Source: Ferroacidibacillus organovorans (GTDB lineage: Bacteria; Bacillota; Bacilli; Alicyclobacillales; SLC66). Taken from it: a DNA stretch of 41,736 nucleotides. This document shows positions 1,818-20,763 of this stretch, one piece after another; position 1 is the stretch's first letter, and each line of letters starts with the position of its first letter. The notes under the pieces were generated by a model. It made no database searches. It was given only the letters and a program-made list of their open reading frames with translations, and had not been told where the DNA came from. Location: positions 1 to 41,736 of the forward strand of contig NZ_LSUQ01000022.1 in the NCBI RefSeq assembly GCF_001642725.1, read 5' to 3'. A program made the translations under genes and the position numbers.

Positions 1818-1868
1818 TTAATGGTTGCAAAACGTTGGGGATGTGAACACGGCGGGAGGGAGACGCGG

Positions 1869-3392
1869 ATGCGCTGTGCGATCTATGCGCGGGTTTCGAC
1901 CGATCGACAAGGCGAGTCTGTTGACCATCAGGTTTCGCTCCTGCGCGAGTTTGCCAAACGTCGGGGGCAGGACTGGGAGGTTTTGGAGCATCTCGTTTTT
2001 GAGGATGAGGGGGTTTCGGCGACAAAGGTTTCCATTTGGACGAGACCTGCAATGAAGCGACTGATGGAGGCGGCGGAGCGGTCGGAAGTGGATGTTGTCT
2101 TGTTTAAGGGCATCTCACGTCTGGCGCGCAATACGCAAGAGGCGCTCGACGTCCTTGACCGTTTGCGCGCGCGCGGCTTGCGCGTGCTCTCTTACGAGGA
2201 GAGCTACGATTCGGCGAAGGAGAATTCGAACTTCATGTTCACGATGCACGCGGCCATCGCTGAGTATGAGGCAGAGAAGATCGGTGTGCGCGTGCGGCTT
2301 GGCAATAAAGAGAAGGCGAAATCAGGTCGCTGGGTGGGAGGGACACCTCCTGACGGCTACTACGTTGGGCGGGATGGTCATCTGGTGCCTGATGATGCGC
2401 GCGCGGGACTCATCCGTTCGATCTTTGAGCGCTATGCGTTGGATGGGTCATCGTGCGCCGCAATCGCTCGGGAACTGAATGCGCGCGGCGAGACAACGTC
2501 GACCGGGAATGGCTTCTCACAGACAGCGGTTGCGAGAATTCTTGACAACGAGGTGTACGCTGGACACTTGGTTTACAATCGGCGAACGGATCGCACCGTT
2601 CGCGATTACGACAGTGAGGTGCCCGGCAAGAAGAAAGAGCGGCGAATGCCGAATGTGCGGACAGAGTGGGTAGTGGTACACTGCGCTCATCCACCGTTGG
2701 TAACGCCGGATCTTGTGCAAATGGCACAAATGCGCCGCGGCCGTGTGCGCAGCCAAGCGCCGCGCACAACGCATTTGCTGACAGGAGTCCTCTCTTGCGG
2801 GCGCTGCCGCGCACCCTTGATCGCGCAGGTCAAACGCACGGCAAAGCGGGTCTATCGCTATTATGTCTGCCGCACGTACCACCAAGCGGGGAGGCAGGCG
2901 TGCGCGCAAGGAAGTGTCCCTGCGGATGATCTTGAGTCCTATGTGCTGACGCGCTTGTCTGAGCGCTTGCGCGAGGTGAGCATCAACGTGCTTGCACCCG
3001 CTTTGCAAAGCGCGTGCGCGCAAGGGGAGGAGCAGGCGAAACGCGAACGCGAACGCATCAATCGGCAACTCACGCGTCTGACGGACGCTTGGATTGCGGC
3101 GCAAGTCGATGATGTCCTGGCAGGTCAGGCCGCGTCTATTCGGGGGCGCATCGCGCGCCTGACGGCAGAGCGTGACGCGCTTTACAAGCGCCTGACGCAG
3201 GCGGGGTTGCACAGACACAAACGTGCGCAGGAGATCTATGCGCGGCTTGTCGATCTGGCGCAGGATGAACCTGCGATGAAACGATACTGGGTGCAAATGC
3301 TGATCTCGTCGCTCGTCGTGCACGATCGTACCCTCCTGATCCAGTACACGTTTTCTTCATCTGACGACACCCCGATCGATGGGAACGTTTGA
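1869..3392 (+). CDS. Large serine recombinase LSR1
   Basis: YARVST catalytic motif, SRLARN, recombinase domain, CGRC...C zinc ribbon; GGGAGGG RBS before ATG 1869. Its 3' end overlaps the yhbH junction. Confidence 0.95.
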
Positions 3393-3733
3393 GAAATATA
3401 TGGCGCGAACGTTTTTCTTCTGGATGGTGCGCTTTTTGCGTACGCGCTATGAGAAGGTTGACATCCAATTTATCGCTCATCACACGGAAGCGCTCGTCGT
3501 CACAGAGGATGAATTTTTCACAAAGGGTGAGAGCGGAGGCACCATCTGTTCATCCGCGTATCAGACGGCACTCAATCTGATTGATGATCGCTATCCGCCG
3601 TCGCGCTACAACATCTACCCTGTGCACTTTTCTGACGGCGACAACCTCTCTTCTGACAACGAGCGGTGTGTGCGCCTCGTTGACGAACTGATGGGACGGT
3701 GCAACATTTTCGGATACGGTGAGGTCAATCAAT
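3376..3733 (+). CDS. yhbH: Sporulation protein YhbH (DUF444), internal segment of split gene
   Basis: [17 protein letters not shown]...GESGGT.CSS...HFSDGDN...YGEVNQ is typical of YhbH; homology stops at the core repeat. Confidence 0.92.
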
Positions 3734-3775
3734 TGAACGGCGTGCGCTCTCTCCACTCCTCATGGTTGAGATCCC

Positions 3776-5341
3776 CTAAAAGAGCAATTCGACATTGAGG
3801 CGTGGACATTCTCCGCCAGTGTCGTTCAGTGTGCGTGTATATTCAATTCTCCGCACGCTTTTGATCAACAACGCGCGCAGATCATCCCCCTTACACGAGA
3901 GGAAAAGGTGGGATGGCTCGCACCTCGCGCGCGCGTTAAGAGCTGATTTGGCGCGATTTGTTTTGTGGTTCGTTTCGTTTCGCTCTTGCTTTAGCGCCTC
4001 AAGGGATTCATTAGCCTGTCGCAGTTGCTCTGCCACTTCATCGTAGCGCGCTTGAAACTGCGTGCGCGTATACACTCCCTGTTCATACATCTCGCAGATT
4101 CGCTTCAATTGTTCTTCCCGTGCCTGGCGCGTCCGCGCAATGACGTGCGCGAGGGAATCAGAGACAGCAGTGAACTCTGTCTGTTCTGGGTTTGGCGTGA
4201 TCGCTACCCCGCGGAATTGATCCGAGAGCGCACGCTGCACAGCGTGCAGGACGAGTTCATAGCGAGCGCTGCGCGTCGGGCAACCTTTTGTGGCACAGCG
4301 CAGTGCATTGTGCGGACGATTTTTCACAGGTTGTCGAACCATGGCGCGCTTGCATGTTGCGCAAAAGATGAGGCCGGCGAGGGGATGGATCTTTTTTTTA
4401 TTGTTGGCTGAGGCACAGGTTGGCGGGCGCTTGGATTCGTTGTTGACACGCTCCCACGTCGCGCAATCTACGATGGGCTCGTGATTTTCTTCGCGAACGA
4501 TCCACGCATCTGGTTCCATCACAACGCGATGATAGCGGGCACGCTCCATCTCACGCACCTTGTGGCTGCGCACGCGTCCCCACACAAGCGCACCGCGATA
4601 GACTGGGTTCAAAAGGATAAAGCGCACGGTCGAAGGCGACCACAAAGCATTCCCCGATGGACTCGGCAACGCCATGGCGCGCAGGCGTTCCGCGATTGCC
4701 GATGGACCAAGGGAATTGCTTGCGAGCGCGTAGATCCACTTCACGACTGGCGCGGTCTGCGGATCGGGGATTAGCTTCAGTTCGTCTGTGCGCAGATAGC
4801 CGTAGGGAGGTCGCTTGCTGATCGAGCGCCCCGCTTTTACACTCTGTTCGCGGCCGCGCTGCATGCGCCGCGTGATTAACTTCAATTCACGGCGAGCGAG
4901 AAAGGATTCGAATTCCGTCCACTCCTCATCCAACTCATCACGCAGGTCGTAGATCTTGCGCGGCGTCACGATGCGCGTGCCGGAGCGCTTAAACGTCTCT
5001 TGAATCACACCCTGGTCGATCAGGTTTCCGCGTCCGAGACGGTCGAGATCCATACAGAGCACCAGGTCGTAGAGTCCATTGGATACATCGTGCAGCAACT
5101 GTTGCATCTGCGGGCGTTCGAGGATGTGCTCACCTGAGGCGATTTCTTGATACGCGCGTCTAATCTCCACGTCGTGTTGACCGGCGAGTTCGCACAGCGC
5201 GCGATGATGTTTGGCGAGCGTTTCGCCGTCTCCGCGCGCTTCGGCTTCGAGATCAGCGCGCGATTTACGCAGATAGAGCGCGGCGCGTAAACGCGGTGAA
5301 TGGACTTGTGATTCATGCACAGTCGTTTCTTTTATCGTCAC
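3776..5341 (-). CDS. Large serine recombinase LSR2
   Basis: YLRKSR catalytic motif, DLDRLGR, PPYGY, CATC...C zinc ribbon; AAGGAGG RBS before GTG; ends ~40 bp from the left core. Confidence 0.95.
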
Positions 5342-5361
5342 ATGAAGCCCTCCTTAGTGCA

Positions 5362-5389
5362 TTGCGCTTTCTATCCATTAGAGTATAAT
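5362..5389 (+). promoter_or_regulatory. Putative sigmaA promoter of the APC transporter
   Basis: TTGCGC-16 bp-TATAAT. Confidence 0.5.
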
Positions 5390-5450
5390 GAGTCACATTG
5401 AACTCGCAGAAGATCCGTCGATGTAAGAAATGATGGAGGCCTCTTATAAC

Positions 5451-7370
5451 ATGGCGTTGTTTCGTCCATGGCTCGATTCGGCAGTGATTACCCTTTCTGT
5501 CGTAGCCATTCTCTATGCATTCTTAAATTTTAATACATTCAAACGAGTGCTCGTCGGATCGCCCATGCGCACCCGCGAGCTACATTCAAAACATAATCGA
5601 CTCTTTTGGCTGATTGCACTACCGATTCTCGCTGCGGATCTTTACTCTTCAGTCGCGTACGGCCCGGAGGCCGGCATTGCGGAACTGACCGTCAATGCGC
5701 ACCTCGGCGTTGACGCCAAGTGGCTGATTCTCCCTGTCACCGGGGCTACCGTCTTGCTATTGATCATTCTTGTCACCTCGTACATCATGGGAGTCATCGC
5801 GTATCCGAACGGCGGTGGCGCGTATGCAATCTCCAAGGACAACTTCAAACGCCCGATCATCTCGCTCATCGCGGCCAGTTCCCTCTTGATCGATTATGTC
5901 CTGACGGTCGCCGTCTCGGTTACGGCAGGGATTCAGGCGATGGCGTCCGCCTATCCGGCGCTTGTTCCGCATGAAACGATCCTTTCGGTCGCATGCATTC
6001 TGCTAATCCTCGTGGTGAATCTGCGTGGTATCTCAGAGTCGGCGACGATTTTTGCGTGGCCGACGTTCCTTTTTATGTTCGCCATGATTTTCTTGATCGG
6101 AACCGGCTTTGTGCAAGAGTTTCATCACGGCTTTGTTCAGCCCGTGACACCGCCGTTTGGTACGCTTCCTAAAGCGCTCACCTCGCTGCTTTTATTAAAG
6201 TCATTCAGCGCGGCGTGTTCCTCACTGACCGGGATTGAGACGATCTCAAACGCGGTTCCGATTTTTCGCGAGCCGAAAACCAAAGGTGCAATCAAAGCGT
6301 ACATCGCGCTCGGCGTGATAACAGGGGTGACACTTCTTGGGTTCTCTTATCACCTTTATGTGAACGGGATCAACGTCATGCCAAACACGACGATGGAGTC
6401 ACAACTCCTGTCGCTCTACTTCGGCTTTGGCCCGATCTATCAAATTATCATCTGGCTGACGTTTATCGTGCTCATCCTCGCGGCAAACTCGACATTCACC
6501 GGATTTCCGCAATTGGCTGCGCTCGTCGCGGCAGACAGCTTTCTCCCGCGCGCCCTCATGCTGCGCGGAGATCGTCTCGGATACTCCAATGGGATGATCG
6601 TGTTGGCTGCGTTTTCCACCATCCTCGTTGTCGTTTTCAATGCACAGACCGATAATTTGATTCCTCTATACTCGATCGGCGTTTTCGTCGCCTTCTCTGT
6701 GGCACAGATTGGACTCGTGCGCTACTGGCTGCGCGAAAAGAAGGGTCGTTGGAAAACAAAACTGACGATCAACCTGATTGGCTCAATCGTAACCATGCTG
6801 GTGTCTGTCGTTGTCTCCGTGACAAAGTTTACGAGCGGTGCGTGGATCATCTTCATTGTTCTCCCGATTCTCCTGTTTATCGCGCTCGCTGTGCGCCGCC
6901 ACTATACGCAGATCGCGAACGAATTGCGGATTGACATGTCATGCATTCGCCCGGAATCACACCGTGTGATCACGGTCGTGCTGGTGTCTGGCGTCAATCG
7001 CGTCGTGCTTAACGCCCTTTCTTTTGCAAAGAGCATCAACAACGAAGTGATCGCGCTCTATATCGGCTTTGACGATGAATCGATCGAGCGCATCGAAAAG
7101 AAGTGGAATGAATGGGAGTGTCCCTGCCGATTGATCACCGTCAAAAGTGAGTATCGCTCGATTCTCTATCCACTGTCTCGCTTTATTGGGCGGCTGCAGT
7201 CGATGGAAGACGGGAAACCGGATCACGTTCATGTGATGATCGCCCAGTTTGTGCCTAAGAAGTGGTGGCACAACATTCTGCATAACCAGACGTCACTCGT
7301 GATCCGTGCTTGGCTTTTACGGCACCGGGATGTCGTGGTAACGACGATTCCCTATCATTTACACGATTAA
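5451..7370 (+). CDS. APC-family permease, KimA/YdaO-like K+ transporter
   Basis: KRVLVGSP...D.YSSVAYGPE, YPNGGGAY, LLIDYVLTVAVS and C-terminal HNQT...PYHL; about 12 TM segments. Confidence 0.88.
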   Translation: MALFRPWLDSAVITLSVVAILYAFLNFNTFKRVLVGSPMRTRELHSKHNRLFWLIALPILAADLYSSVAYGPEAGIAELTVNAHLGVDAKWLILPVTGATVLLLIILVTSYIMGVIAYPNGGGAYAISKDNFKRPIISLIAASSLLIDYVLTVAVSVTAGIQAMASAYPALVPHETILSVACILLILVVNLRGISESATIFAWPTFLFMFAMIFLIGTGFVQEFHHGFVQPVTPPFGTLPKALTSLLLLKSFSAACSSLTGIETISNAVPIFREPKTKGAIKAYIALGVITGVTLLGFSYHLYVNGINVMPNTTMESQLLSLYFGFGPIYQIIIWLTFIVLILAANSTFTGFPQLAALVAADSFLPRALMLRGDRLGYSNGMIVLAAFSTILVVVFNAQTDNLIPLYSIGVFVAFSVAQIGLVRYWLREKKGRWKTKLTINLIGSIVTMLVSVVVSVTKFTSGAWIIFIVLPILLFIALAVRRHYTQIANELRIDMSCIRPESHRVITVVLVSGVNRVVLNALSFAKSINNEVIALYIGFDDESIERIEKKWNEWECPCRLITVKSEYRSILYPLSRFIGRLQSMEDGKPDHVHVMIAQFVPKKWWHNILHNQTSLVIRAWLLRHRDVVVTTIPYHLHD

Positions 7371-7375
7371 AACAG

Positions 7376-7450
7376 GATAGACGGTAGCATGGCGCTCTCT
7401 CGCCACCGTTTACGGGAAAATAATCGGCTGCGCCGTTATTTTGAGATAGA
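7376..7450 (+). repeat. ~75-bp two-hairpin repeat, copy 1
   Basis: Near-identical to 28265-28340; begins and ends with GATAGA. Confidence 0.85.
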
Positions 7451-7473
7451 GACAAGCGAGCCTCCCATATCGT
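7446..7473 (+). promoter_or_regulatory. Putative sigmaE-type promoter for ORF 7497
   Basis: ATA (7446-7448), 17 bp, then CATATCGT (7466-7473). Confidence 0.4.
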
Positions 7474-7496
7474 TAAGAAGATAGGGAGGTGTTTTT

Positions 7497-7697
7497 ATGC
7501 CGTCTACGACGTACTACCTTGATCACGCGATCGTAACCATTCACGTTCGCTGCGAATGGAACGCAAAATCGTTTGATGGAGTGGTGGAGACTCCAATCTA
7601 TCGCACGTTTTGCGAAGCGGTGCGGCGTGTTGCCAGCAATGGACAGGCAGAGAGCCGGGATGGGTCAATCAATACAACCGCAGCTCCACGCTCATGA
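7497..7697 (+). CDS. Small protein crossing the right att site; candidate directionality factor of element 2
   Basis: Strong AGGGAGGT RBS; ORF reads through the core; on the excised circle it would stop right after the core (59 aa). Confidence 0.6.
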   Translation: MPSTTYYLDHAIVTIHVRCEWNAKSFDGVVETPIYRTFCEAVRRVASNGQAESRDGSINTTAAPRS

Positions 7698-7816
7698 GCG
7701 CGTACCGTAACATTCGCTCGCCTCGCTTTCGCTGTGCGGTCATCAAGGATAAAGCGGAGGTTTACAAAGCGCTACGCACCTTCTTTTCCACTGCAGAAGG
7801 AGGGATCGTACCGTGA
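7663..7816 (+). CDS. yhbH: YhbH C-terminal segment
   Basis: [17 protein letters not shown]...VYKALRTFF matches the YhbH C-terminus; its stop overlaps the spoVR start (GTGA). Confidence 0.9.
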
Positions 7817-7991
7817 CACCAGATGAGATTCGCGAACTTGAGTCGTCGATTGAACGCATGATGGAGCTGGCGCAAGGGTTTGGACTTGACTTCTATGACA
7901 TGCGATTTGAACTGGTACCCGCCGACGTGTTATACACGTTCGGCGCGTACCAAGGCATGCCGACCCGCTTTTCACACTGGTCGTTTGGTAA
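7813..7991 (+). CDS. spoVR: SpoVR segment 1 (N-terminus)
   Basis: GFGLDFY.MRFE...[28 protein letters not shown]. Confidence 0.93.
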
Positions 7992-8018
7992 GACAAAGCA
8001 CCATGTGTATGAAAAAAA

Positions 8019-9437
8019 TTAGACATTCCAGTTGATCTCAAGATCTTGATTGGGACGAAGAAGGATCGTTTTGATGGCGGCCCGTAAAACTGCTTGGCGA
8101 GCGTCAAAATCCAGATCGTCCCAGCTCTGATCGATCAGACGCATAAGATTGAACAGGTCCTCTTTACGTGCGGGCTCGGGCGCTGCCTCCTCCAACGTAT
8201 CACGTTGTAACCATAACGCGCGTTTCTCGGCTTCTAATGCATCGATTCGTTCTTTCAGATGAGATGGCTGAATGAACCCTTCCTCAAAAGCGTCGTACCA
8301 TCGGTTTAATCGATGATCAATCTGGGTTAATTTTTCTTCAATCGCGGATAACACCACGCATGATTGGCGTTGTTCTTCAGTAGAGAGCTCAATTTCTGTG
8401 CGCAGGTCTTCCATGTCAATGGCGGTTGATCTCACCTTAGCGATGATCCAAGCTTCGAGTTTTTCTTGAGGGAAATAGCCTAATTGGCAGTGTTCTTGCC
8501 CTTTTCGATCTCTTTTGCGCACATGTTGATTCTTACAGGCGTAGTATTCGTAGGTATGTGTTTGTCTCTTTGTGCGAACGCGAATGACAGAGCTCCCGCA
8601 TAAGCCGCAACGACACAAACCGGAAAGCAAGTATGCGCCTGTCGATGTCAGACCGTTGCGGCGACGAGCCGTTTCATTTTGAACCATTGTGTATAGATCC
8701 AGAGGGATGATTGCCTCATGCTGACCCTCCACAGGCTCCGAAGGGCCGTTGGGTAACCTCCCGGTATAGATGACCCGGTCGAGGATGGATTTAATTCCGT
8801 TGTGATCGACCTTGATATCAGTACTGCGTGCATTGAGCCAATCAGCCAGTTCGAGTCGCGATTTACCTTGGAGATACATCTGGTTTATTTTACGAATGAG
8901 TTCTGCTTTTTCAGGAACGATCACCAACGTTTGATTCTGTTTATCCCAACGGTAACCAAAAGCGACCCTGCCTCCACTCCATCGACCCTGGCGAATCCTC
9001 ATTCGTCGTCCTGACGTTGTTCGCTCAATGATCATGTCACGCTCCAACTGTGCGAATACCGCAAGGATTCCAATGGTTGCCTTGCCCAAAGGTGTCGCGG
9101 TGTCAAAGGGCTCTGTTGAACTTTTGAAAGCGACATTGTTTTTTTCAAAGACATCCTCGAGGAGATGCAACACATCCTTTTGTCTTCGACTAAGACGGTC
9201 GAGTTTATAAACGACGACAAGATCAATTTTTCCTTCTAGGGTGTGCTTGATAAGTCTGGTCATTGCAGGACGATCAAGCTTCGTGCCCGTATAACCGTCA
9301 TCAATATAAAATCGGTAGTCTTCCCAACCCTGTGAGGCACAGTAGGCAATAAGTCGATCTCGTTGGTGATCGATTGAAAATCCCTGCATCGCTTGTTCTT
9401 CCGTGGAAACGCGGATATAGAGGGCAATCTTAGTCAT
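8019..9437 (-). CDS. Large serine recombinase LSR3
   Basis: [24 protein letters not shown]...C; likely start ATG 9437 with GGGG RBS; ends 27 bp from the left core. Confidence 0.95.
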
Positions 9438-9617
9438 AGCACACCCCATTGACTTTATTGATGTGACTTGATGCCAATGAATGATTGCTTCACCGTTATG
9501 ATATTTACGTTGTTTTGCAAAATGCGGCTCCACAACTCATATTTAAAAACAATCAAGAGGATATACGTATTCAGTTGGAGGTTTATAACCACAAATAACG
9601 ATTCGATAAGCTGGCAA

Positions 9618-9643
9618 ACGGACGTGCCGCTTGAGCATAGCCT
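9618..9643 (+). promoter_or_regulatory. Putative sigmaK-type promoter for the 46-aa ORF
   Basis: AC (9618-9619), 16 bp, then CATAGCCT (9636-9643). Confidence 0.4.
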
Positions 9644-9661
9644 TAATTAGGGGGTGTGCTT

Positions 9662-9802
9662 GTGGAGGAAAAACCGATCAAATTAAATCCGGATGCGGCA
9701 CGGTTGATTTTACGCCTGTGTGTTGAGGCCATACGTAGAGCGAACGCGAAACGGGGAAGAGAACGGGTAGAGGGCGTACAAAATCTTCAAGAGGGCGCTT
9801 AG
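9662..9802 (+). CDS. 46-aa ORF divergent from LSR3 (not in ORF track); candidate directionality factor
   Basis: GTG...TAG encodes MEEKPIKLNPDAARLILRLCVEAIRRANAKRGRERVEGVQNLQEGA; GGGGG RBS 7 nt upstream. Confidence 0.55.
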   Translation: MEEKPIKLNPDAARLILRLCVEAIRRANAKRGRERVEGVQNLQEGA

Positions 9803-9870
9803 CCTTCTTATGTAGGACAGGCCACAGTGAGTATGTATGCACGAGTAAACACCCGATATACGCACTGCAA

Positions 9871-10092
9871 ATCTTCAGCTAAGTGTAACAAAGCATTTCG
9901 AATCCGTTGCCTTGCGTGTGGAGTTAGTTTGTCTATAAATTTTTGTGCGTCTTTGCTCAGGAGTAGATTGTATATTCAGTTTTCCACGAAGATCTCATCA
10001 AAGGGAACGAAGTCGCCATTTCTCATCTCTTGCCGAATCCGTTTATATTCTGCAATCTCTGCGTCTGTCACGGGTTCATCATCCTCGTTCAT
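9871..10092 (-). pseudogene. Remnant RelBE/ParDE-type toxin-antitoxin pair
   Basis: 10092-9976 gives MNEDDEPVTDAEIAEYKRIRQEMRNGDFVPFDEIF (antitoxin C-terminus-like). 9975-9871 gives YNLLLSKDAQKFIDKLTPHARQRIRNALLHLAED (RelE N-terminus-like, truncated, no ATG). Confidence 0.65.
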
Positions 10093-11039
10093 GAATCACT
10101 TGCTTTCTTTGTACGGGAGGCAATTTTCATGATTTCGTTGGCAACAACAACCTCTGTTCCTGCTAAGCCCACAGAGCAGAATAGAGTAATATCGGTTTCT
10201 GTCATTCTTCCGGATGCTTTTCCACATACGATTTCGGACAGTTGCACAATGCGATTTTCACATTTCGTATCCACCAAGAAATGGGGTGTTTTATAAGCGT
10301 GAAGCTGTTCGATCGAGTCCGTCGCGATGATCGTACTCTTAATGCCCAAATCGAGGGGTACCTCATGCCAATTTTTAGTTTTTGGGCCAACCGTATTGAT
10401 GTGTGTTCCTGGTTTGAGCCAGTCGGATTCGAATACAGGAGTGCCACTGTTGGTCGCACAGATGACGATATCGGCATCTTCGATGCAATCTCTTGGGGAA
10501 GTGGCAACTGCGATATTCGCATGGATCTTCTTGCGCATTCCCTCTGCAAATGCTTCTCGGTTTTCTTGCTTGCGGCTATAAACCTTAATACTTTTAATGT
10601 TTCGTACAGCCACGGCTGCCTCCAATTGTGTCCGCGCTTGTAGTCCCGTACCCATCACGGCGATTTTTTTTGCATCGACTCGAGCCATGGCGTTTATTGC
10701 TGCGCCACCGATTGCGCCAGTACGAATGGCACCGATGAGATTGCCGATGACCACTCCCTTAAAAACACCCGTATCCGAGTCAAAGACGCACACGAGCTGT
10801 TGATGACCCTCTGCATCATTTTCGTACGTATCGTAGACACGAAATCCAGTAACCTTTTCGAGTCCAGTTGCGGCTCCTGCCGTAAAAACCAAGTTGCCCT
10901 GTTCCGCTTCCACACGGAAACGTGGCGGTGATACAAGGGTTCCGTTTATTTGCTCCTGAAAGCAACGTTCGATGGCGTTCACGATCCGCTTCATGGAGGC
11001 AAACGATTCAACATCGTGATCCGTAAGAATGGAGTACAT
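10089..11039 (-). CDS. Ornithine cyclodeaminase/mu-crystallin family protein
   Basis: IRTGA.G, GTGLQA, ADIVICAT, HINTVG, F.SVGLA motifs. Confidence 0.9.
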   Translation of the reverse strand: MYSILTDHDVESFASMKRIVNAIERCFQEQINGTLVSPPRFRVEAEQGNLVFTAGAATGLEKVTGFRVYDTYENDAEGHQQLVCVFDSDTGVFKGVVIGNLIGAIRTGAIGGAAINAMARVDAKKIAVMGTGLQARTQLEAAVAVRNIKSIKVYSRKQENREAFAEGMRKKIHANIAVATSPRDCIEDADIVICATNSGTPVFESDWLKPGTHINTVGPKTKNWHEVPLDLGIKSTIIATDSIEQLHAYKTPHFLVDTKCENRIVQLSEIVCGKASGRMTETDITLFCSVGLAGTEVVVANEIMKIASRTKKASDS

Positions 11040-11244
11040 GCAATACACCCCTTCACTGTTCCAATCTGTTACAGTGCGTTTTGTGACGTAAAGGATCTCA
11101 GCGAGTGCCAGGGAACGTCCATCTTCAATTATTTAAAACAAATCGATGCGAATGACAGCATCAAAGGATTCCATTGACCCATGAATAGGACGGTTTAATT
11201 TATTGTGTCTACGTGCTATTGCATAAATCCTCAAGGGATATTAA

Positions 11245-12261
11245 CTAACCATACACCTCTGCCATCCAATTGGCGTAATCGGACACCGCTTGGATCAATT
11301 TTTCCAGCTCTTGCAAAGTATGTATGACTTCTCTGCGCCCCAACTCTCTGTCATCCATGTTGAATAGATCTCTGTTTAAGGAGCGACGCATGTTGTATTC
11401 GAGCCATCCTAACATACCTCCGAAACTGCCGTACACAGCATCTAATACTTCATTGTGCAACGTTCCGCCAGCTTCGAGATAAGCCTGAATCACTCCCTGG
11501 AAACGTTCCTTACTCACGGTCCCGTCGTGACTTCTGCTCCAATTAAATGCCACCTCGACTAATTCTACAGTTGGATGTATATAACCTGCCGATTCCCAAT
11601 CGATCAGATATGGAATGCCTTCGTGATTCCAAATAACATTTTTAGAATCTAAATCCCGATGACTAATGACAAATTTCTGGGGAAGATTGTCTACTGCATC
11701 CTGATACTTTCGAGACCAGTTGGTCACATCTTGCAAGATACTTTCACAAGAAAGACCCCAACACGATGCGTCCCGTCGAGCATTCTCGATGTGATACCTC
11801 TACGTATCGAAGGAAATTGCCGAGAAAGTTGGTAACGCCGAACCATCAATGACAATATCGAGGTTGTGTATCTGGAACAAAATCTCTCCGATGTGCTTAA
11901 CGTGCTCAGACGTACAATTTTCGGGAAGCAACGTGATACCATCGACCCAGTCAAACACCATCACATATTCACCATGCAATTCAATCCATGGTTGACGATC
12001 TACAGTTCTTGCAGAAACCGCACGAATGCCCTTTATATTAGCCTGATGTGCGACTCTTTCTGACATTCTATAATTGGTCTTTGCATCAGGACGAGACATT
12101 ATCTATGAATTCAGTACTTTTATTGCAAATCGTCCGTGGTCTGTCTCTAAACACCACATTCGATGGAGTAATCCGCCTGTGACGGGTTGTGGAGTTCCTT
12201 GGGGAATTCCAATTTCAAAACCATCGCATATCGCATTCAAATCGACACTCAAGCGAGTCAT
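11245..12261 (-). pseudogene. Aminoglycoside-phosphotransferase-like kinase with two in-frame TAG stops
   Basis: Three ORF pieces share one frame, separated only by TAG at 12103-12105 and 11800-11802. Motifs GGLLHRMW, HRDLDSKN, IDWE. Confidence 0.82.
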
Positions 12262-12292
12262 TTGATTTCCCCTCATCAGTAGAATAAGCCCT

Positions 12293-12721
12293 TTAGCAGA
12301 GTGACAAGCGGCAGTGAAACCGCTCAACTCCGGGATATTTCTCACCAAGGGACCGTATTTCAAATCCATATCTACGATAAAATTCAACCGCATCATGATC
12401 TGTTTCGGCAGTTAATTCCGTGAGATTCTCAAGCATAAGGAGGTTATCTATCATTCTTCGACCAATTCCGCAGTTACGCTTGTGTTCATCGACGGCAATG
12501 TGAAGAATTTCAGCAGAAAATCCTTCTCTCTTGAAACCAATGATGCCTAGCGCTGCGTCGTCATTATCGATGAATACATATAGTTTCGTATCACTTTGCG
12601 AGTACACTTGCACCAAAATATTGCTGAGCTTTTCATCCGTGGCGGAGCCGACCGCGTATGACAACCATTGTTTTATCTGCTCGATGGATGTGATATGGCT
12701 TCTGTACTCAACCAGCGTCAC
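12293..12721 (-). CDS. GNAT acetyltransferase
   Basis: HIAVD...RNCGIGR and AVEFYRRYGF motifs; GGGAGGG RBS before GTG 12721. Confidence 0.88.
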   Translation of the reverse strand: MTLVEYRSHITSIEQIKQWLSYAVGSATDEKLSNILVQVYSQSDTKLYVFIDNDDAALGIIGFKREGFSAEILHIAVDEHKRNCGIGRRMIDNLLMLENLTELTAETDHDAVEFYRRYGFEIRSLGEKYPGVERFHCRLSLC

Positions 12722-12786
12722 AAGCGACCCTCCCTTCCTCAGCAACCAAGCTTCGTTTGTCTCCCGTGAATCAAATCCAAACGATG

Positions 12787-13725
12787 TTATTTAGCGAGTT
12801 CTACAGCCAACAGCGCACCTACGTGCGCATTGTTCTTTACCAGTGCCACATTTGTCTCCAGGCTTTTACCATCGGTCAGTTCTTTAATTTTATCGAGAAG
12901 AAAAGGGGTTACGTCCTTGCCCCTGATGTGTTTCCGATGCGCTTCGTCCAGCGCTTCTGTAATGACTTTTTCAATTTCTTTTGCATCCATTGCGAATTCC
13001 TCGGGGACAGGATTCGCAATGACAGCCCCGCCATGGAGTCCGAGTTTCCACTTCGTGTGTAGGAATGAAGCTAATGCCTCCGGGCTGTCGAGCGAAAAGT
13101 TTGTCTGGAATCCACTTGTGCGACTGTAGAATGCAGGGAACTCGGTGGTCTGGTAGCCAATGACTGGGACGCCGTATGTCTCCAGGTATTCGAGTGTAAG
13201 TTCAATATCGAGGATCGATTTTGCGCCAGCACAGACAACGGCCACGTTGGTCTGCGCAAGCTCGTTCAAGTCCGCAGAGATGTCCATCGTTTGTTCGGCG
13301 CCGCGATGTACACCGCCAATACCACCCGTGACAAATACGCGGATACCCGCAAGCTGAGCGCAAATCATCGTTGCAGCAACCGTGGTCGCGCCACTCTGTC
13401 CTTGTGCGAGAACAAATGCCAAATCACGGCGACTGACCTTTGTGATACTGTCTCGATTTTCAGGGCATCCGAGCCATTCAAGGTTCTCATCGGAAAGTCC
13501 GATATGGATTTTTCCGTTCAAAATTGCAATCGTCGCCGGGACCGCGCCATGGTATCGAATAATGGCTTCGACTTCCTTTGCCGTTTGTACATTGGTTGGA
13601 TAAGGCATGCCATGTGAAATAATGGTCGACTCAAGCGCGACAATTGGCTTCTCAGTTCTCTTTGCCTCCATTACTTCATCCGAAAAATGCAACCATTGGT
13701 TTAACGACGGGTTCATATCTTCCAT
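12787..13725 (-). CDS. psuG: Pseudouridine-5'-phosphate glycosidase
   Basis: [47 protein letters not shown]. Confidence 0.95.
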
Positions 13726-13740
13726 CTCTCCTATGATGTT

Positions 13741-14850
13741 CTACAGAATTTCTGACAACCAGGCTTGAGCCTCGCGTGGGTCGATTTCTGTAGATACGGT
13801 TTCTTTTGTCACCAACGTTAGGCTGGACAAGCGAGCGGCAAATTGACATGCCTGTTTGACACTCGCATCGCTGACCATCGCAAAGCAGAAGCCAGCCACG
13901 AATGCGTCACCTGCACCAGTCACATCGACGACGTCGATGCTCTCTGCCGGTATTTTGCCAAAGGTGCCTGCCTCATCCAACCAAGCCACACCATCCCTGC
14001 CCATAGTTGCGACAACGGTCCGACACCCCCTATCTTTCAGTGCGACACATGCGGCGCGAACGCTATCCTCTTTATCGACAGGGATACCTGAAATTGCCTC
14101 CATTTCATCTCGATTGGCGATCAGCGTATGAATCCCGGTAAGGTCTCTTGGCAAGCGCTTGGCTTTGGGACTTGATACCGGAGCAACAATCAGTAAAGTG
14201 CCAGCCCTTGCCGACTCGGTAATGACAAAGGCAAGCGCTTCTGCCGGCAAGTTCGTGTCGACGATCGCAATCGTAGCTTGTTGCAGCACCCGCGATCTCG
14301 GTGTCAACTGCTCGACGGTTAAGTCGTCGTAAATTTCCATATCGGCGAGCGCAACAGTCATACTCCCGTCGACGTCGAGCACCGCAGTGTATGTTCCTGT
14401 GCGGTGTGCAGTCGATCGGATGATCTGGCTGACATCTGTACCAAGGCCCTCAAGGTGCGCGAGTATCATTTCGGCTTCTTTGTCGTTGCCGACCATGGTG
14501 ACAAGCGACGTGGGTAATCCGAGGCGTGTCATATTTTCGGCAATATTTCTTGCAACGCCACCAAATGACTCTACAACAAAAGAGGGGTTCGACGTGCCTA
14601 GCTGGATTGGTTCATACGCTTGAATTTTTCGATCTACATTCGCACCGCCGATGCACAAAATACGCCCTCGCTGTGGCAAAACGTAGGCCCGACCGAGAAT
14701 CTCCCCCTCTTTGATGAGCGCAGAGATATAAGCTGCTACCGCAGGTCTGGATGCATTCATTCGTTCAGCCAAATCTCGTTGGGAGATAAACGGGTTTTCA
14801 CGGATACAATGTAGAACTTCCTGTTTCTTGCTCCGACCCGACTCAGCCAC
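13741..14850 (-). CDS. psuK: HTH-PfkB kinase, pseudouridine kinase-like
   Basis: N-terminal HTH (NPFISQRDLAERM), GGVARNIA and DVTGAGDAF motifs; adjacent to psuG. Confidence 0.85.
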   Translation of the reverse strand: MAESGRSKKQEVLHCIRENPFISQRDLAERMNASRPAVAAYISALIKEGEILGRAYVLPQRGRILCIGGANVDRKIQAYEPIQLGTSNPSFVVESFGGVARNIAENMTRLGLPTSLVTMVGNDKEAEMILAHLEGLGTDVSQIIRSTAHRTGTYTAVLDVDGSMTVALADMEIYDDLTVEQLTPRSRVLQQATIAIVDTNLPAEALAFVITESARAGTLLIVAPVSSPKAKRLPRDLTGIHTLIANRDEMEAISGIPVDKEDSVRAACVALKDRGCRTVVATMGRDGVAWLDEAGTFGKIPAESIDVVDVTGAGDAFVAGFCFAMVSDASVKQACQFAARLSSLTLVTKETVSTEIDPREAQAWLSEIL

Positions 14851-14862
14851 ATCGTCACTCCT

Positions 14863-14909
14863 TATAACACATGTTATATTAGGTTAAACAATTGTTTGTT
14901 AGCAGTCAA
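14863..14909 (-). promoter_or_regulatory. psuKG promoter with two AACA-NN-TGTT palindromes
   Basis: Minus-strand TTGACT-17-TAACCT; palindromes at 14866-14875 and 14887-14896. Confidence 0.55.
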
Positions 14910-14973
14910 TCTACGATAGAAATTGCCGCATCGGTGATTTTACATCAATCTGAAATTTTCATATACCTGGTGT

Positions 14974-15620
14974 TTTGGTAAAGCGTACCACCGTATGAAG
15001 ATGGACTATGATTTGGGATTGAGCCGCATCTATGAACTGGTGATTAATTCGAATCCGTGCTACGCATTTCTGCTCGACAGCAATTCTCTCGTGCAAAATA
15101 AATTGGTGAGCGCCCACGTTCTCGCACACTGTGACTTTTTTAAAAACAACATGATGTTTCACCGCACCTCGCGAAATGTCGTTGAAAGTATGGCGGCGAG
15201 CGCGGAACGCTTTCGTACCTATGAGCTGCAATACGGAAAAGATGAGGTGGAAGCATTTCTGGATGCGGCGCTCGCGCTACAGGAACACATCGACCCATCA
15301 GAGCGCGCATTTCGTCATCCGCATACGAAACCGGATTTGCGCGAGGAGCAAGAGCAGTCACCTCGGGTCGGAAAATATGATGATTTATTTGCGCTGGATG
15401 GTCGTTTATCCGATCGTGCGAAGGTGGATGAAAAGAAGGCGGAAAATCGCAAAGCAAAGGGGTTCGCAAAAGACGCACCGCAAAAGGATTTGTTGCTATT
15501 TTTGCAATCGCACAGCAAGATTCTCGCGGAGTGGCAGCGCGACATGCTGACGGTGATTCGCGAGGAGATGCTCTACTTTTGGCCGCAGATTGAGACAAAA
15601 ATCATGAACGAAGGCTGGGC
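14974..15620 (+). CDS. spoVR: SpoVR segment 2 (middle)
   Basis: [38 protein letters not shown]...[16 protein letters not shown]. Confidence 0.95.
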
Positions 15621-15755
15621 TTCGGATTGCAAAAATGGTTTTTTTCATAGCGTACGAAAGATCCAAATGACACGAGTGATTCCGAAGGATTCTAGAATCC
15701 CCAACAAGGAGGCAACGCAAGAGCCCCCTTGTTTACGTAAACTTCAAGGGAGTTT

Positions 15756-16247
15756 TTATTCAGCCACGTCTGTGCGAACGAAAAACGCTGGCGGTTCTTT
15801 GCCCAAGAGTCGGAGGTAGACATAGCCTTGTCCGCGGTGATGAATCTCATTCTCGAGAGCGTAAGTAAGCCAACTCATCGCCGTGCCGTCAGGTCCACCC
15901 CAAAATGGCTCCGATCGCATGATTGTAAGCGATTCCATAGAAATCGATGGCCAAAGCTTGCGCGTTTGTTCGCGAACGTGTTGTCCATAGGCGAGCGCTT
16001 CTTGGATTGGAGCAGTCCGCAGCTCGTCTGGGATCCCTTCCCACTTCCATTGATCAAGCGCCAAACCCCTCAGATAGGCGTTTTCAATGCCCCAAATCTC
16101 AAAGAGCATCTCGCGAAACGGTCGCATGCCATTTACGGGCTGCTTGTCCATCGCTTCTGCGGCGTCCAAGTCGCGCGCAACAAAATTCGTGAGCCGCCGA
16201 TTCTCTTCCCACACATCCAAAAACCAAGATTTCCAGTCGAATTCCAA
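15756..16247 (-). CDS. DinB-family protein
   Basis: MRPFREM and [17 protein letters not shown] motifs; AAAGGAG RBS before TTG 16247. Confidence 0.85.
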
Positions 16248-16318
16248 GATGAACACTCCTTTTGAAGAATCCATGGCGTACGTTTGTACGATAGCACACG
16301 TGACATGCCAAAAACATC

Positions 16319-16549
16319 CTATTTTTCCGGTTCCCCATCAAAGAATGTAATCTGTGCCGCGCGCGCGATGTCTTCGTTTGTTTCTTGTTCAATCCATGTG
16401 CGCAAGGCCGCTTCGCGGACAGATTTGCACCACGTGGTGAGTTGTTGCTCTAGATGTGTCCTCACGGTTAAATCCGGGATTTCAGCGAGTTGTGTAAACG
16501 ATTGTTCGACATCGCCTATCTTAATCGAAAATCTGACGCGAACGGCCAT
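16319..16549 (-). CDS. 76-aa protein divergent from LSR4; candidate directionality factor
   Basis: GAGG RBS; position relative to LSR4 mirrors element 3. Confidence 0.55.
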   Translation of the reverse strand: MAVRVRFSIKIGDVEQSFTQLAEIPDLTVRTHLEQQLTTWCKSVREAALRTWIEQETNEDIARAAQITFFDGEPEK

Positions 16550-16788
16550 CTTTCCTCACCCCATGTTCATGGATATGAGTGGAGAATCGCGGGACAGCCC
16601 TGTGCAATTTGCTTTGTGATCTATGGTGATATTGCACACCTTCGTCTGAAACGCCACATTGACCAATTTGGGATTGAAATCTACCGTAGAGAGTAGCTGA
16701 ACAGAGACAGGACCTAGAATGCGCCACCCACTCATAGGCATAGAGAAGACGTGATTCGAATGCCTTGGTGAGGTGAGCGGAATCGGCG

Positions 16789-18309
16789 ATGCGTGAAAAT
16801 GCAGCGAAAAAGATTGCGATTTACTGTCGCGTATCCACGGATGAGCAGGCAAAAGAAGGCGTGTCGCTCGATGAGCAAAAGGCGAGGCTTCACGCGTACT
16901 GTCGCGCGATGGGTTGGGCGACAGAAGCTGTAGAGTATATTGATGACGGCTATTCGGCGAAAAATATGGAGCGTCCGGCGCTTGAACGCTTGTTGCGACA
17001 TGTGAAGGCAGGGCGCGTTGAGCGGCTCATGGTGACAAAACTCGATCGATTGAGTCGGCGTTTGCTTGATTTGTTGACGCTGATCGAACTGTTTCAAAAC
17101 CACGACGTTTCATTCGTATCGACAAGCGAATCCTTTGATACAGCGACGCCTTCCGGTCGCTTGACACTGCAGGTGCTCGGAGCTGTCGCGGAGTTTGAGC
17201 GTGAGCGCATACGTGAGCGCGTTTTTGACAACATGCTGCATGCAGCAAAAATGGGGAAATGGTTGACACAAGCTCCATACGGCTATCGGCTCGACGCGAA
17301 AAAGTTGGTTATTTGTGAAATGGAGGCGCTTCTTGTTCAGCGCGTCTTTCGCATGTTTGTCGAAGATGGTTTGGGATACTTTCAAATTGCAAAGAAATTG
17401 AATCAGGAACACATCCCTTCTCGCAATGGGAAGGCGTGGTCGATTCGGAGTGTCAAAATCATGCTGAGTAATCCTGCCTATGCGGGAACGCTTGTGTGGA
17501 ATCGCGTTGATTCGAGTCAAAAGCGTCGAGTGCTTAAAGAAGAAGACGCGTGGGTCGAGATGCGCGACGCTCACCCAGCGATTGTTGAACAGGCGCTGTG
17601 GCATCAGGCGCAGCAGCGCATCGCGAGCCATCCGCGAATGCCGCCGCGCGCGCAAGCCAGCCCTCATCTGCTGGGTGGCTATTTGCGTTGTGGAGAATGC
17701 GGCGCGGCGATGTCGATCGGTTGGTCTGGAAATCCGCGGCGAACGCGCGTCTATCGCTGTTCTGCGTATCGAAATCAGGGGCTTTGTCAGAGTAAGCCGT
17801 ATCGTGCAGACGATGTGGAGCGGTGGTTTGTGGAGGCGCTTGAATGCGTGGTGGAGCCTGTGAATCATGCGCGGCACACCGCTTTGGTTCAGCGTGTGCG
17901 GGCGGAGCAGATCGCCAAATTGGATCAGAGGATGCACGCCGCGAAAATGCGCTATGACAGACAGGTAGAAGCGTATACGGCGGGACTCATCGAGATGGAT
18001 ACCCTTGCGCGTGAAAAGGTGGCGCTGAAGCGATGTGTCGCAGAGTACGCAAAGGAGATGTCGACGACGGATTCATCTTCACATGATAAGGAGCTGGAGG
18101 AACGCCTGCGCGGACGGGCGGTTACGCTCGGCGATGCGCTAACCGTGCTTCCGGCTGACTGGATCAAAGCGAAACTGCGCACATGGATTCACAGCGTCAT
18201 TCTTCACGGACGTGAGGATCTTGAGATTGTGTTGTGTCCTGATCTGACGATGGTTTCTGATGCAATGGATCAATCCATTGGAGGATTTTTAGAGTATGGT
18301 GTCGAATGA
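16789..18309 (+). CDS. Large serine recombinase LSR4
   Basis: YCRVST, KLDRLSR, VAEFER, APYGY, CGEC...C. Confidence 0.95.
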   Translation: MRENAAKKIAIYCRVSTDEQAKEGVSLDEQKARLHAYCRAMGWATEAVEYIDDGYSAKNMERPALERLLRHVKAGRVERLMVTKLDRLSRRLLDLLTLIELFQNHDVSFVSTSESFDTATPSGRLTLQVLGAVAEFERERIRERVFDNMLHAAKMGKWLTQAPYGYRLDAKKLVICEMEALLVQRVFRMFVEDGLGYFQIAKKLNQEHIPSRNGKAWSIRSVKIMLSNPAYAGTLVWNRVDSSQKRRVLKEEDAWVEMRDAHPAIVEQALWHQAQQRIASHPRMPPRAQASPHLLGGYLRCGECGAAMSIGWSGNPRRTRVYRCSAYRNQGLCQSKPYRADDVERWFVEALECVVEPVNHARHTALVQRVRAEQIAKLDQRMHAAKMRYDRQVEAYTAGLIEMDTLAREKVALKRCVAEYAKEMSTTDSSSHDKELEERLRGRAVTLGDALTVLPADWIKAKLRTWIHSVILHGREDLEIVLCPDLTMVSDAMDQSIGGFLEYGVE

Positions 18310-18353
18310 ATAAGATTATTGTAGGTTGACGGTTTTTTGTGAGGGATCTAGGG

Positions 18354-19265
18354 ATGGCCAATTCGGTAATTAAAAATTACTCGGACGACATTCGAACTGA
18401 GATTTATCGAGTGACGAATGAGCTACTGGAGCACCTGCACCTGTATTATCAGCCATTTCCTGAATTTGATGCTGTCCGATTTCCGGCAACGGCGCTGACG
18501 ACCGCGACGGAAGGCTTTTTTTTACCGATGATGCTACTAAAAAAGATGGTTGTTATTCCTGTGTGGATTTTTACGATTGATGACGTGATTGATCGTAAAT
18601 TGTTGTCGGATGAAGAATTGGATGCTCGACTGAAAAGTTATGAATGGATCATCACGCAGGGGCTGGATGCGTCTGACGTGTATGGTCGCGTGTTGAAGGA
18701 TCTTTATGACCAGCTAAAAGAGAGGCCGCTTTTTCACGCGTTGCGAGAAGTGTGGGAAGAAGCCTATTTTCGAATGATCCGTGGGATGCTTCTTGAAGCG
18801 CGTGAAACCGTTCGAGTCCCATCGTATGATGAATATCTCGAACACGGATCGTACAGCATTGGCGTTCCGCTCTATGTCGTTTCGACGTGGATTCTCGGTT
18901 CTTATGAAGAAACATTAACGCATCTAGAAGTCCTAAAAAAGCTGATGATGCTGTCGGCGAAAAGCATTCGGCTTGCCAACGACATGCGTACATACGAAAA
19001 AGAGAAAATGGAAAAGAACCTAAACGCGCTTGTGATCATGGAGAATACGTACGAGTCAGAAGGCTACGCGCCTGACGCGGCGAAAGCGTTGGCGTCTGCA
19101 TTTGTACGGGAAGAGTTGGAGCGCTATCGCACGCAGTTTCTTGAATTGGTTGATGAATCGGTACTGCCAATCAGAACGCTGTCAAACGTTACTCAGTTTT
19201 CGCTGTCGTTTTATGATGAGCATGATTTTCATACCGTTGATGCGGGGGAGATCCACCATGTTTGA
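18354..19265 (+). CDS. Class I terpene synthase
   Basis: DDVID (DDxxD) and NDMRTYEKE (NSE/DTE) motifs, YDEYL; start could be GTG 18339. Confidence 0.85.
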   Translation: MANSVIKNYSDDIRTEIYRVTNELLEHLHLYYQPFPEFDAVRFPATALTTATEGFFLPMMLLKKMVVIPVWIFTIDDVIDRKLLSDEELDARLKSYEWIITQGLDASDVYGRVLKDLYDQLKERPLFHALREVWEEAYFRMIRGMLLEARETVRVPSYDEYLEHGSYSIGVPLYVVSTWILGSYEETLTHLEVLKKLMMLSAKSIRLANDMRTYEKEKMEKNLNALVIMENTYESEGYAPDAAKALASAFVREELERYRTQFLELVDESVLPIRTLSNVTQFSLSFYDEHDFHTVDAGEIHHV

Positions 19266-20763
19266 AAACGCGGGTGAAGACGATGCTTCAAAAACGGATG
19301 TGAAGCGCAGAGCGCGTGACTTGGTCGAGCGATTGCAGGGCGGCGCGATGGGATCGATCGCTTATGACACTTCGTGGGTGGCGCGCTTAAAAAATCGGGA
19401 TGGTTCTCCGAAATTCCCGACTACGATCGCCTGGCTGCGCGCGCATCAACACGCGGACGGAAGTTTTGGCGCGCGCGATGAAACGTTGCATGACCGGCTG
19501 ATTTCTACGCTCGCGAGCGTTAATGCACTGACGACGTTGCACGATGAAACGGATAGCGAGCGCATCTCTCGCGCACTTGACTATGTGGCGCGAAACGGTG
19601 GTCGTCTGCGCGCGGATGACGCTGAAACGATTGGTTTTGAGTTGCTTTTTCCTTCGCTACTCGAAGAGGCAAAAGGCTATGGATATCGACTGCCTTTTGA
19701 ATCCTTCGGATGGGTTGAAGAACTGGGGAAAAGAAAGTTGAGCGCAGTTCCCGCGTCGTGGATCTACGAAGCGGAGTCTCCACTTATCCACAGCATCGAG
19801 TTTCTCGGAAAAACAGCACAGATTGATCGCATGGCGCAACTCGTTTCGGTCAACGGATCGATCGGAAACTCTCCATCCGCCTCGGCATTTGTCTATGGGC
19901 AAACGGACGACCCCCGACTGGAGGCGTATTTGCGTCAGATTGTAGAGACGTCTGAGGATGGCGGTGTCTGCAATGTTCAACCGTTTGAAATTTTCGAAAC
20001 GGCGTGGGTGTACTTCAATCTACAGTTGGCTGGAATCACGGTTGAGGGAATGCAAAAAGGATTGCATGAGATTGAGCTGTCATTCAGGCCGCAGGGTGTC
20101 GGGATTTCCCGCAATGGCCTAATGCCAGACGCGGATGACAGTGCACTCGCCGTCAATGTGCTAGCTCGCGCTGGACGCCGAATGTCACTCCAGTTTTTGG
20201 ATTTTTATCAAGCGGAACGCGGATTTTTATGTTTTCCGTATGAGCGCAACCCTTCGATTTCAACCAATATCCACATCCTTGACGCGCTGCGTGCGTATGA
20301 GCCGCAAGAAGTGGCGCCTCATGTGGATAAGATTCTCACGTTTTTGCGCGAGGCTCAACAGGAAAATGCGTATTGGAAAGATAAATGGCATGCCTCTCCA
20401 TTCTATACAACAGCGCATGCGATTCTGGCGCTGCGAGGATTGACTGAGTCACTGATAAAAACGGCGGTCGATTATTTAATTGAATCGCAACGGCCTGATG
20501 GTTCGTGGGGGATTTTTAGGGGTACGGCGGAAGAAACGGCGTATTGTGTACAGGCGTTGACGCTTGCGCTTCCTTATTCTGCGGATGTGGACAAGCGGCT
20601 TGCACGTGCACTTTCTTTTTTAAGTAGCGAGGGGGCAAAAAAACCTCACTCTGAACTCTGGATTGGGAAGGGGCTCTATGCGCCAACCTATGTGATTGAC
20701 GCTACGATTCTAAGCGCGCGCGCGCTCTACCAGAGATGGAGGTACTCTCATGAAAAAGGATGA
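19258..20763 (+). CDS. Class II diterpene cyclase (copalyl/halimadienyl diphosphate synthase-like)
   Basis: YDTSWVA, QHADGSFG and QRPDGSWG (QW repeats), catalytic DADD, DKWHASPFY, EETAY, LWIGKGLY; GGGGGAG RBS before ATG 19258. Confidence 0.92.
   Translation: MFENAGEDDASKTDVKRRARDLVERLQGGAMGSIAYDTSWVARLKNRDGSPKFPTTIAWLRAHQHADGSFGARDETLHDRLISTLASVNALTTLHDETDSERISRALDYVARNGGRLRADDAETIGFELLFPSLLEEAKGYGYRLPFESFGWVEELGKRKLSAVPASWIYEAESPLIHSIEFLGKTAQIDRMAQLVSVNGSIGNSPSASAFVYGQTDDPRLEAYLRQIVETSEDGGVCNVQPFEIFETAWVYFNLQLAGITVEGMQKGLHEIELSFRPQGVGISRNGLMPDADDSALAVNVLARAGRRMSLQFLDFYQAERGFLCFPYERNPSISTNIHILDALRAYEPQEVAPHVDKILTFLREAQQENAYWKDKWHASPFYTTAHAILALRGLTESLIKTAVDYLIESQRPDGSWGIFRGTAEETAYCVQALTLALPYSADVDKRLARALSFLSSEGAKKPHSELWIGKGLYAPTYVIDATILSARALYQRWRYSHEKG

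Follow-up and report, generated by a model that had tools for sequence, protein, structure and literature searches.

Symmetry of attP about the crossover is a textbook property of the attachment (att) sites of large serine recombinases (LSRs). In the SprA/SprB system of Bacillus subtilis, a recombination directionality factor (RDF) is made in sporulation, the element is excised and the interrupted gene is rejoined (PMC5499854, PMC4191935). Recombinase-carrying inserts in mother-cell genes are also represented by vfbin in spoVFB, vrin in spoVR, skin in sigK and gin in gerE, described with one insert per gene (PMC4191935, PMC6957869, PMC5595907, PMC5025042), and some RDF genes of such sporulation gene-intervening elements are still to be identified (PMC6957869). 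Both spoVR and yhbH have been named as targets (bioRxiv 10.1101/2021.11.22.469490, citing Abe et al. 2013), and both are listed under sigmaE in B. subtilis (PMC3416734). Here we analyzed a stretch of 41,736 nucleotides from Ferroacidibacillus organovorans (contig NZ_LSUQ01000022.1, hereafter the window), in which yhbH and the adjacent spoVR are each cut by two inserts. We focus on the second insert in yhbH, element 2, and its recombinase, LSR2. A preliminary description of the window had proposed that the att sites of element 2 recombine at a central CA and that yhbH is a target of LSR2.

The closest described system is SPbeta, with SprA/SprB, at spsM of B. subtilis (PMC5499854, PMC4191935, PMC11722253). 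Its recombinase is homologous to LSR2 (E 3e-37), and the solved structure nearest to LSR2 is the SPbeta integrase 9dxh, at the same E value. In both systems attP is symmetric about a central dinucleotide within a short shared core and attB is asymmetric; in both, a small RDF gene (a candidate in element 2) lies at the far end, with a mother-cell promoter (predicted in element 2). They differ in target (yhbH rather than spsM), central dinucleotide (CA rather than AA), core (11 bp rather than 16 bp) and displacement of the outer motif (5 bp rather than 4 bp). Element 2 is also just 3.9 kb long and is without phage genes, and its candidate RDF gene runs through attR. The sites and gene pieces are as follows.

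3379..3731, forward strand: middle piece of yhbH (DUF444), between elements 1 and 2; matches TIGR02877 from position 215, E 3.6e-64
3732-7671: element 2, an insert of 3,940 bp that splits yhbH
7672..7816, forward strand: 3' piece of yhbH; matches TIGR02877 positions 330-371, E 1.5e-8; overlaps the start of spoVR (7813)
3723-3733 and 7663-7673: left and right copies of an 11-bp direct repeat that bounds element 2
3730-3731 and 7670-7671: attL and attR copies of the predicted crossover dinucleotide CA, within the 11-bp repeat
3708..3756: predicted attL, with host (B) arm, core and element (P') arm
7645..7693: predicted attR, with element (P) arm, core containing the CA at 7670-7671 and host (B') arm
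7649-7655: left outer arm of attP, AGAGAGC, at -21 to -15 about the CA
3746-3752: right outer arm of attP, GCTCTCT, at +15 to +21 about the CA, in the zone of the expected zinc-domain motif

The limits of attL and attR are estimates taken from the sizes of the SprA sites (attB 44 bp, attP 52 bp; PMC5499854). On these limits, the predicted attP is 7645-7671 joined to 3732-3756, and the predicted attB is 3708-3731 joined to 7672-7693. The middle piece of yhbH ends in CA, the first two bases of a Gln codon at about model position 332, and joining 3379-3731 to 7672-7816 gives an in-frame sequence of 165 residues with no stop. Immediately left of the CA in attR, 7665-7669 is the reverse complement of 3732-3736, the five bases right of the CA in attL, and the joined element ends have perfect arms at ±1-5 and ±15-21, both about the CA. 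The left inner arm doubles as host (attB) sequence. When the sequence was re-read, every arm and CA coordinate in the preliminary description was correct. The inner and outer arms do share the CA as their center, as had been claimed: 14 of 25 position pairs in the joined site are complementary there, compared with 10 or fewer at other even centers and 13 at the best single-base center.

To put this symmetry in context, we made 200,000 random joins of window DNA, taking the best of 10 centers for each. An inner arm of at least 5 plus an outer run of at least 7 occurred in 4 of these, a figure that overstates the case because the arm features were picked after the site had been inspected. In the same joins, approximately 1.1% reached 14/25 and 1.1% had an inner arm of at least 5.

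Orthologous loci allow the crossover to be tested independently. Genomes were scanned with a 33-member alignment of relatives, and 80 loci are among the matches listed. In the 12 best of these, which are a lower bound, yhbH is interrupted at the identical codon and a recombinase adjoins it; the other 68 have no yhbH match. These loci bear out the proposal that yhbH is an LSR target, a target that was itself already known. In a quick tree (the window and 11 of the loci, L011 being left out) the 12 yhbH rows fall on one side of a branch with a support of 94, below the starred level. Eight loci hold both element ends and, with the window, make nine two-ended copies. The eight elements are 2.9-10.5 kb long with unrelated cargo, and at the positions of the perfect 7-bp outer arm, which is special to the window copy, they pair 2-4 of 7. 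The restored yhbH frame is open in all nine copies.

CA is the sole dinucleotide that is identical between attL and attR in 9/9 copies. The symmetry of attP is at its maximum at the CA in each of the nine as well, with a sum of 128 complementary pairs versus 77 at the next center. By contrast, attB, reconstructed from the attL and attR arms, shows no symmetry peak (summed 80 at CA, maximum 84). Copy by copy, complementary pairs number 12-17 of 25 in attP and 7-11 of 25 in attB. From these comparisons, the crossover of element 2 is almost certainly at the CA, as originally proposed.

Two further tests, from which L007 and L012 were left out as near-duplicates, examined the arms themselves. Across eight loci, attP arms paired with their own partner at a mean of 13.9/25 versus 11.5 with the partner from another locus, which 144 of 20,000 permutations reached. 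Because arms pair better with their own partner, the symmetry has been kept through differing sequences. On each of the two B halves, the profile of the outer P arm gives its highest score at -5, with -3 second. Column-shuffled profiles did as well in 9 of 5,000 cases at -5 or -4, and in 97 of 5,000 at any of 18 shifts. That the outer motif lies 5 bp nearer the center in attB is reported as the general rule, with 4 bp for SPbeta (PMC11722253). The earlier assignment of attP and attB is thus upheld, and because the outer, zinc-domain motif sits 5 bp farther from the center in P half-sites than in B half-sites, integration by attP x attB would be one-way.

The genes and other features within element 2, including the open reading frame (ORF) that we propose as the RDF gene, are listed here.

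3776..5341, reverse strand: LSR2, a 521-residue LSR with Pfam PF00239, PF07508 and PF13408 above cut-off
5451..7370, forward strand: cargo gene for a KimA-like potassium transporter of the APC family; the longest ORF starts at 5430; PDB 6s3k (KimA), E 2.7e-141
7376..7450: two-hairpin sequence of 75 bp, with 88% identity to 28265-28340, which is close to the right end of element 4
7446..7473, forward strand: candidate mother-cell (sigmaE/sigmaK-type) promoter, ATA-17 bp-CATA, preceding a strong ribosome-binding site
7497..7697, forward strand: ORF 7497, candidate RDF of 66 residues, spanning attR

LSR2 has the features of its class, namely catalytic, recombinase and zinc-ribbon domains, the serine, and a coiled coil in the zinc domain. 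Ser27 aligns with Ser22 of SprA, the four Cys of the zinc ribbon are at 327, 330, 349 and 354, and the coiled coil is placed at approximately 395-470 by alignment with the matching region of SprA and the orthologues. LSR2 is 36% identical to the best phage recombinase and 99% identical to the nearest database protein, whose source is named Ferroacidibacillus organovorans. The transporter has AA_permease_2 and K_trans domains in Pfam. Element 2 holds three credible genes in 3,940 bp and no phage structural, replication or lysis genes, which rules it out as an SPbeta-like prophage. The two-hairpin sequence gave no Rfam match and no plasmid match, an Rfam scan of the whole window gave no match, and a scan for sigma-70 promoters gave nothing above chance.

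LSR2, the KimA-like gene and the small ORF lie between predicted hybrid sites whose joining would restore the yhbH frame. The features of an att system that we found are a shared 2-bp crossover, an attP of approximately 50 bp that is an imperfect inverted repeat, a less symmetric attB and a 4-5 bp shift of the outer motif. As expected of a sporulation gene-intervening element, element 2 splits a gene that is under sigmaE in B. subtilis and the frame is restored in 9/9 copies. Judged by its sequence, element 2 matches every testable feature of a serine-integrase att system.

We consider it quite probable that element 2, minimal and non-phage, belongs to the SprA/SprB type of gene-intervening element and is excised in the mother cell via ORF 7497. 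By comparison with the known systems, LSR2 would integrate the element one-way, cutting with a 2-bp stagger at the CA. Modeling and analogy suggest that in the sporulating mother cell the sigmaE/sigmaK-type promoter would then switch on ORF 7497, the product of which would add a strand to the zinc domain of LSR2 at the base of the coiled coil and switch the enzyme to attL x attR excision. This would yield a 3,940-bp circle and a rejoined yhbH in the mother cell only, and the spore would retain element 2 and its potassium transporter. Full expression of yhbH-spoVR would need three further excisions by three other recombinases. That excision is timed to sporulation is suggested by analogy with the SprA/SprB elements.

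The modeled complex makes ORF 7497 the likely directionality factor of LSR2, and among the ORFs of element 2 listed with a ribosome site it is the only clear candidate. LSR2 300-521 modeled with the first 59 residues of ORF 7497 gave a score of 0.81, and the best of three controls gave 0.00; of 157 solved complexes, 116 attain the mark used for this score, as do 2 of 215 mismatched pairs. At least 85% of contacts agree from run to run, and the predicted local distance difference test (pLDDT) value of the partner is at least 65. In the model, a strand of ORF 7497 is added to LSR2 514-519, and ORF 7497 also contacts residues 359-384 and 474-495. These contacts lie at the junction of zinc domain and coiled coil, where RDFs bind or are modeled to bind (PMC12286644).

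In the excised circle ORF 7497 would meet a stop at 3734-3736 and encode 59 residues. A protein in the sequence collection (P0122) is 88% identical to ORF 7497, has 59 residues and ends at the exact residue of the predicted circle form. Its contig of 4,067 bases is 127 longer than element 2, and these features would fit a real excised circle. The contigs of P0122 and of another listed protein, P0001 (4,087 bases), are near the 3,940-bp size of the element, as if it assembles apart from the chromosome. A search of the atlas with ORF 7497 gave nothing usable.

When conserved small ORFs were sought at attR and throughout the orthologous elements, the search initially gave only shadows of the recombinase gene. 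The small-ORF family surfaced once ORFs divergent from the recombinase start were listed, which is where the orthologues have theirs. At E<0.001, a profile of 25 of these divergent ORFs detected a relative in 41 of the 55 loci outside the profile (of the 80 listed). Around L013-L080, a small candidate-RDF ORF was found in 58 of the 122 segments scanned, and most of these sister recombinases have one. The distant profile matched the ORFs of the yhbH clade at E 0.009-0.75 only; the two sets are likely, rather than shown, to form one family. CATA lies at -40 to -18 in 41/60 related small ORFs with a ribosome site, some of them from close genomes, versus 10% of random positions. In ORF 7497, CATA is at -31 from the start codon and ATA is 17 bases before it. 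Pairing is predicted between the ribosome site of ORF 7497 and sequence around the -10 region of the same ORF (7460-7490); a read-through transcript from the transporter gene might hide this site and a transcript from the inner promoter would not.

Some orthologues differ from LSR2 in a way that bears on directionality. The following recombinases have no coiled coil.

L011:3923-5170 and L012 about 10013-11235: recombinases of two orthologous yhbH loci
P0051, P0059 and P0061: orthologous recombinases listed with these

Those of L011 and L012 have 407 residues from the catalytic motif, compared with approximately 500, the whole coiled coil being deleted in frame. They use the same CA site, have the most symmetric attP (17/25) and have a CATACA motif 5' of the gene. 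An integrase of Listeria innocua engineered to lack the coiled coil lost directionality and was inefficient (PMC5499577). The Listeria deletion was engineered, whereas L011 and L012 lack the coiled coil naturally; LSR2 keeps its own.

A number of points weigh against our interpretation of element 2. The promoter remains a candidate, its ATA-17 bp-CATA arrangement fitting what we take to be the sigmaE consensus. In the orthologues the small ORF adjoins the recombinase start, not attR as ORF 7497 does. ORF 7497 ranks top of 808 window segments with the small-ORF profile of the yhbH clade, with an E value of only 0.14, and wider profiles, whether distant or combined, had no match to it at E<=5. 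A shared promoter 5' of the recombinase genes was looked for and none was found. LSR2 forms a long branch, and the first helix of its coiled coil contains a 7-residue gap. A contig break at the core could give the same 59-residue end in P0122, and the complex score may reflect likeness to the solved SPbeta pair. RDF predictions by virtual pulldown were false in 4 of 11 cases (PMC12286644). For the crossover, 10 dinucleotides within the 11-bp repeat yield identical products from the window sequence alone, and few copies bound the CA: dropping either L011 and L012 or L003 and L010 leaves three dinucleotides.

One alternative is that the sites and the CA are as described and the RDF is not ORF 7497, the factor coming from another element or the host, or LSR2 acting alone under transcriptional control. 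The weak link of ORF 7497 to the clade family (E 0.14) and its different placement favor this, as do the coiled-coil-less orthologues, which indicate that the clade can lose normal directionality control. We nonetheless regard it as unlikely given the complex score of 0.81 versus 0.00 at the expected surface, the promoter-like motif and strong ribosome site that ORF 7497 shares with the small-ORF family, and the lack of another clear candidate among the ORFs with a ribosome site.

It is somewhat less likely again that element 2 is retained as an ordinary mobile island on account of its potassium transporter, with excision that is rare or stress-linked and outside sporulation, and yhbH mostly broken. 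Under this alternative one could account for cargo that differs wholly among orthologous elements and for four inserts in one operon, which could mark a tolerant hotspot; the 59-residue form in the sequence collection is silent on the trigger. Yet the pieces of yhbH and spoVR keep open, joinable frames with 53-87% identity to orthologues, and a sigmaE/K-type -10 motif precedes the small ORFs. Among the 49 loci scanned, sister recombinases also adjoin pieces of other likely mother-cell genes: sigma-70 region 2 pieces (13 loci), flavoprotein pieces (8) and Mn-catalase pieces (3), which we infer to be sigK, spoVFB and cotJC. Other gene pieces beside the sister recombinases of L013-L080 include YheC/D.

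A crossover at another dinucleotide of the 11-bp repeat is very improbable. The window alone leaves 10 dinucleotides, so the CA is singled out by symmetry and the orthologues only, and mismatches in the orthologues could postdate insertion. The attL/attR mismatches lie just right of the CA in L003 and L010 and just left of it in L011 and L012. In L011 and L012 a complementary base at +1 accompanies the -1 mismatch, which excludes random decay, and the symmetry maximum is at the CA in every two-ended copy. Least credible of all is that element 2 is a dead relic and yhbH a pseudogene: LSR2 is on a long branch with a shortened coiled-coil helix, but its 521-residue frame is intact with catalytic and zinc residues present, a relative from the same named species, 76% identical, is likewise intact, and the outer attP arms are perfect.

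Element 2 is one of four inserts in yhbH-spoVR. The other three are as follows.

1821..3392, forward strand: LSR1, at the right end of element 1; this element interrupts yhbH immediately before 3379
7990..14981: element 3, in spoVR, with LSR3 at 8019-9533 on the reverse strand; predicted crossover AA at 7990-91 and 14980-81
15616..28445: element 4, in spoVR, with LSR4 at 16789-18309 on the forward strand; predicted crossover TG at 15616-17 and 28444-45

The four recombinases are 22-33% identical over their aligned parts. The left end of element 1 and the 5' part of yhbH lie beyond the window. Element 3 has an 8-bp repeat and an attP symmetry of 19/25 at AA versus 9 or fewer at other centers; element 4 has a 14-bp repeat and 18/25 at TG, also versus 9 or fewer. 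Alternative junctions for elements 3 and 4 were ruled out by frame or symmetry, and with both elements removed spoVR is a single open frame of 480 codons.

Directly 5' of LSR1 is an ORF of 68 residues (1611-1817), placed like skr before spoIVCA, which is a possible RDF gene of element 1; it matched nothing in Pfam or in the 12 yhbH loci. Element 3 has a lower G+C content (44-52%) over 10089-14850 and carries ornithine-cyclodeaminase-like, phosphotransferase-like, GNAT, indigoidine-synthase-A-like and PfkB kinase genes. The cargo of element 4 (18339-24184) includes a terpene synthase, a squalene-hopene-cyclase-like enzyme, a GGDEF/HD protein and a polyprenyl synthase, and from these genes is likely a terpenoid cluster.

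Among the 12 orthologous loci listed, L002, L003 and L010 also have a cut at site 1, L003 and L012 at site 3, and L005 and L010 at site 4 or no more than a few bases from it; spoVR is whole in L004, L006 and L008. Because these sites are cut in several loci, stacked inserts recur in this group. Site 1 is used by two different recombinases, one that is 58% identical to LSR1 in L003 and one that is about 33% identical in L002 and L010.

As a comparison, the nif excision elements of cyanobacteria likewise involve several removals in a terminally differentiated cell that rebuild one gene cluster (PMC11249958). They differ in that the cell is a heterocyst rather than a spore mother cell, the genes and recombinases are other ones, and yhbH-spoVR has no inverted pieces. 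The vfbin, vrin, skin and gin elements are described as single inserts, whereas here there are two per gene in two adjacent genes. A bolder idea, which we hold tentatively and think more doubtful than probable, is that in this lineage yhbH-spoVR is a developmental gate with four locks, that four unrelated recombinase systems, each having its own att pair, would all have to excise in one mother cell for the genes to work, and that the locks are being domesticated. As part of this idea, excision possibly rewrites the C-terminus of the RDF from 66 to 59 residues as feedback against re-integration, and the sister lineage without the coiled coil may be a natural RDF-independent excision enzyme at the same CA.

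The mechanism and yhbH as a target were already known, and element 2 adds a member to the SprA-type sporulation gene-intervening elements. Literature searches, with most subscription papers outside their coverage, found no account of this yhbH site, the RDF candidate or the four-cut yhbH-spoVR; Abe et al. 2013 may list the site. The supplement of PMC10083194 had no match for YhbH, DUF444, SpoVR, Alicyclobacillus or Ferroacidibacillus. Less ordinary are the cutting of yhbH-spoVR four times by four unrelated recombinases and the two orthologues without a coiled coil.

The symmetry of the att sites is by itself ordinary, and the weight of these results lies with the candidate RDF, the operon cut four times and the relatives that lack a coiled coil. 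For the yhbH-targeting clade there is now a predicted full set of recombinase, attP, attB, crossover and RDF that can be tested on plasmids, and a small-protein family is proposed as the RDF for the wider group of recombinases in sporulation genes. The natural coiled-coil-less orthologues offer a test of the current model of integrase directionality, and the four-cut operon a test of how far programmed DNA rearrangement stacks in one spore-forming cell.

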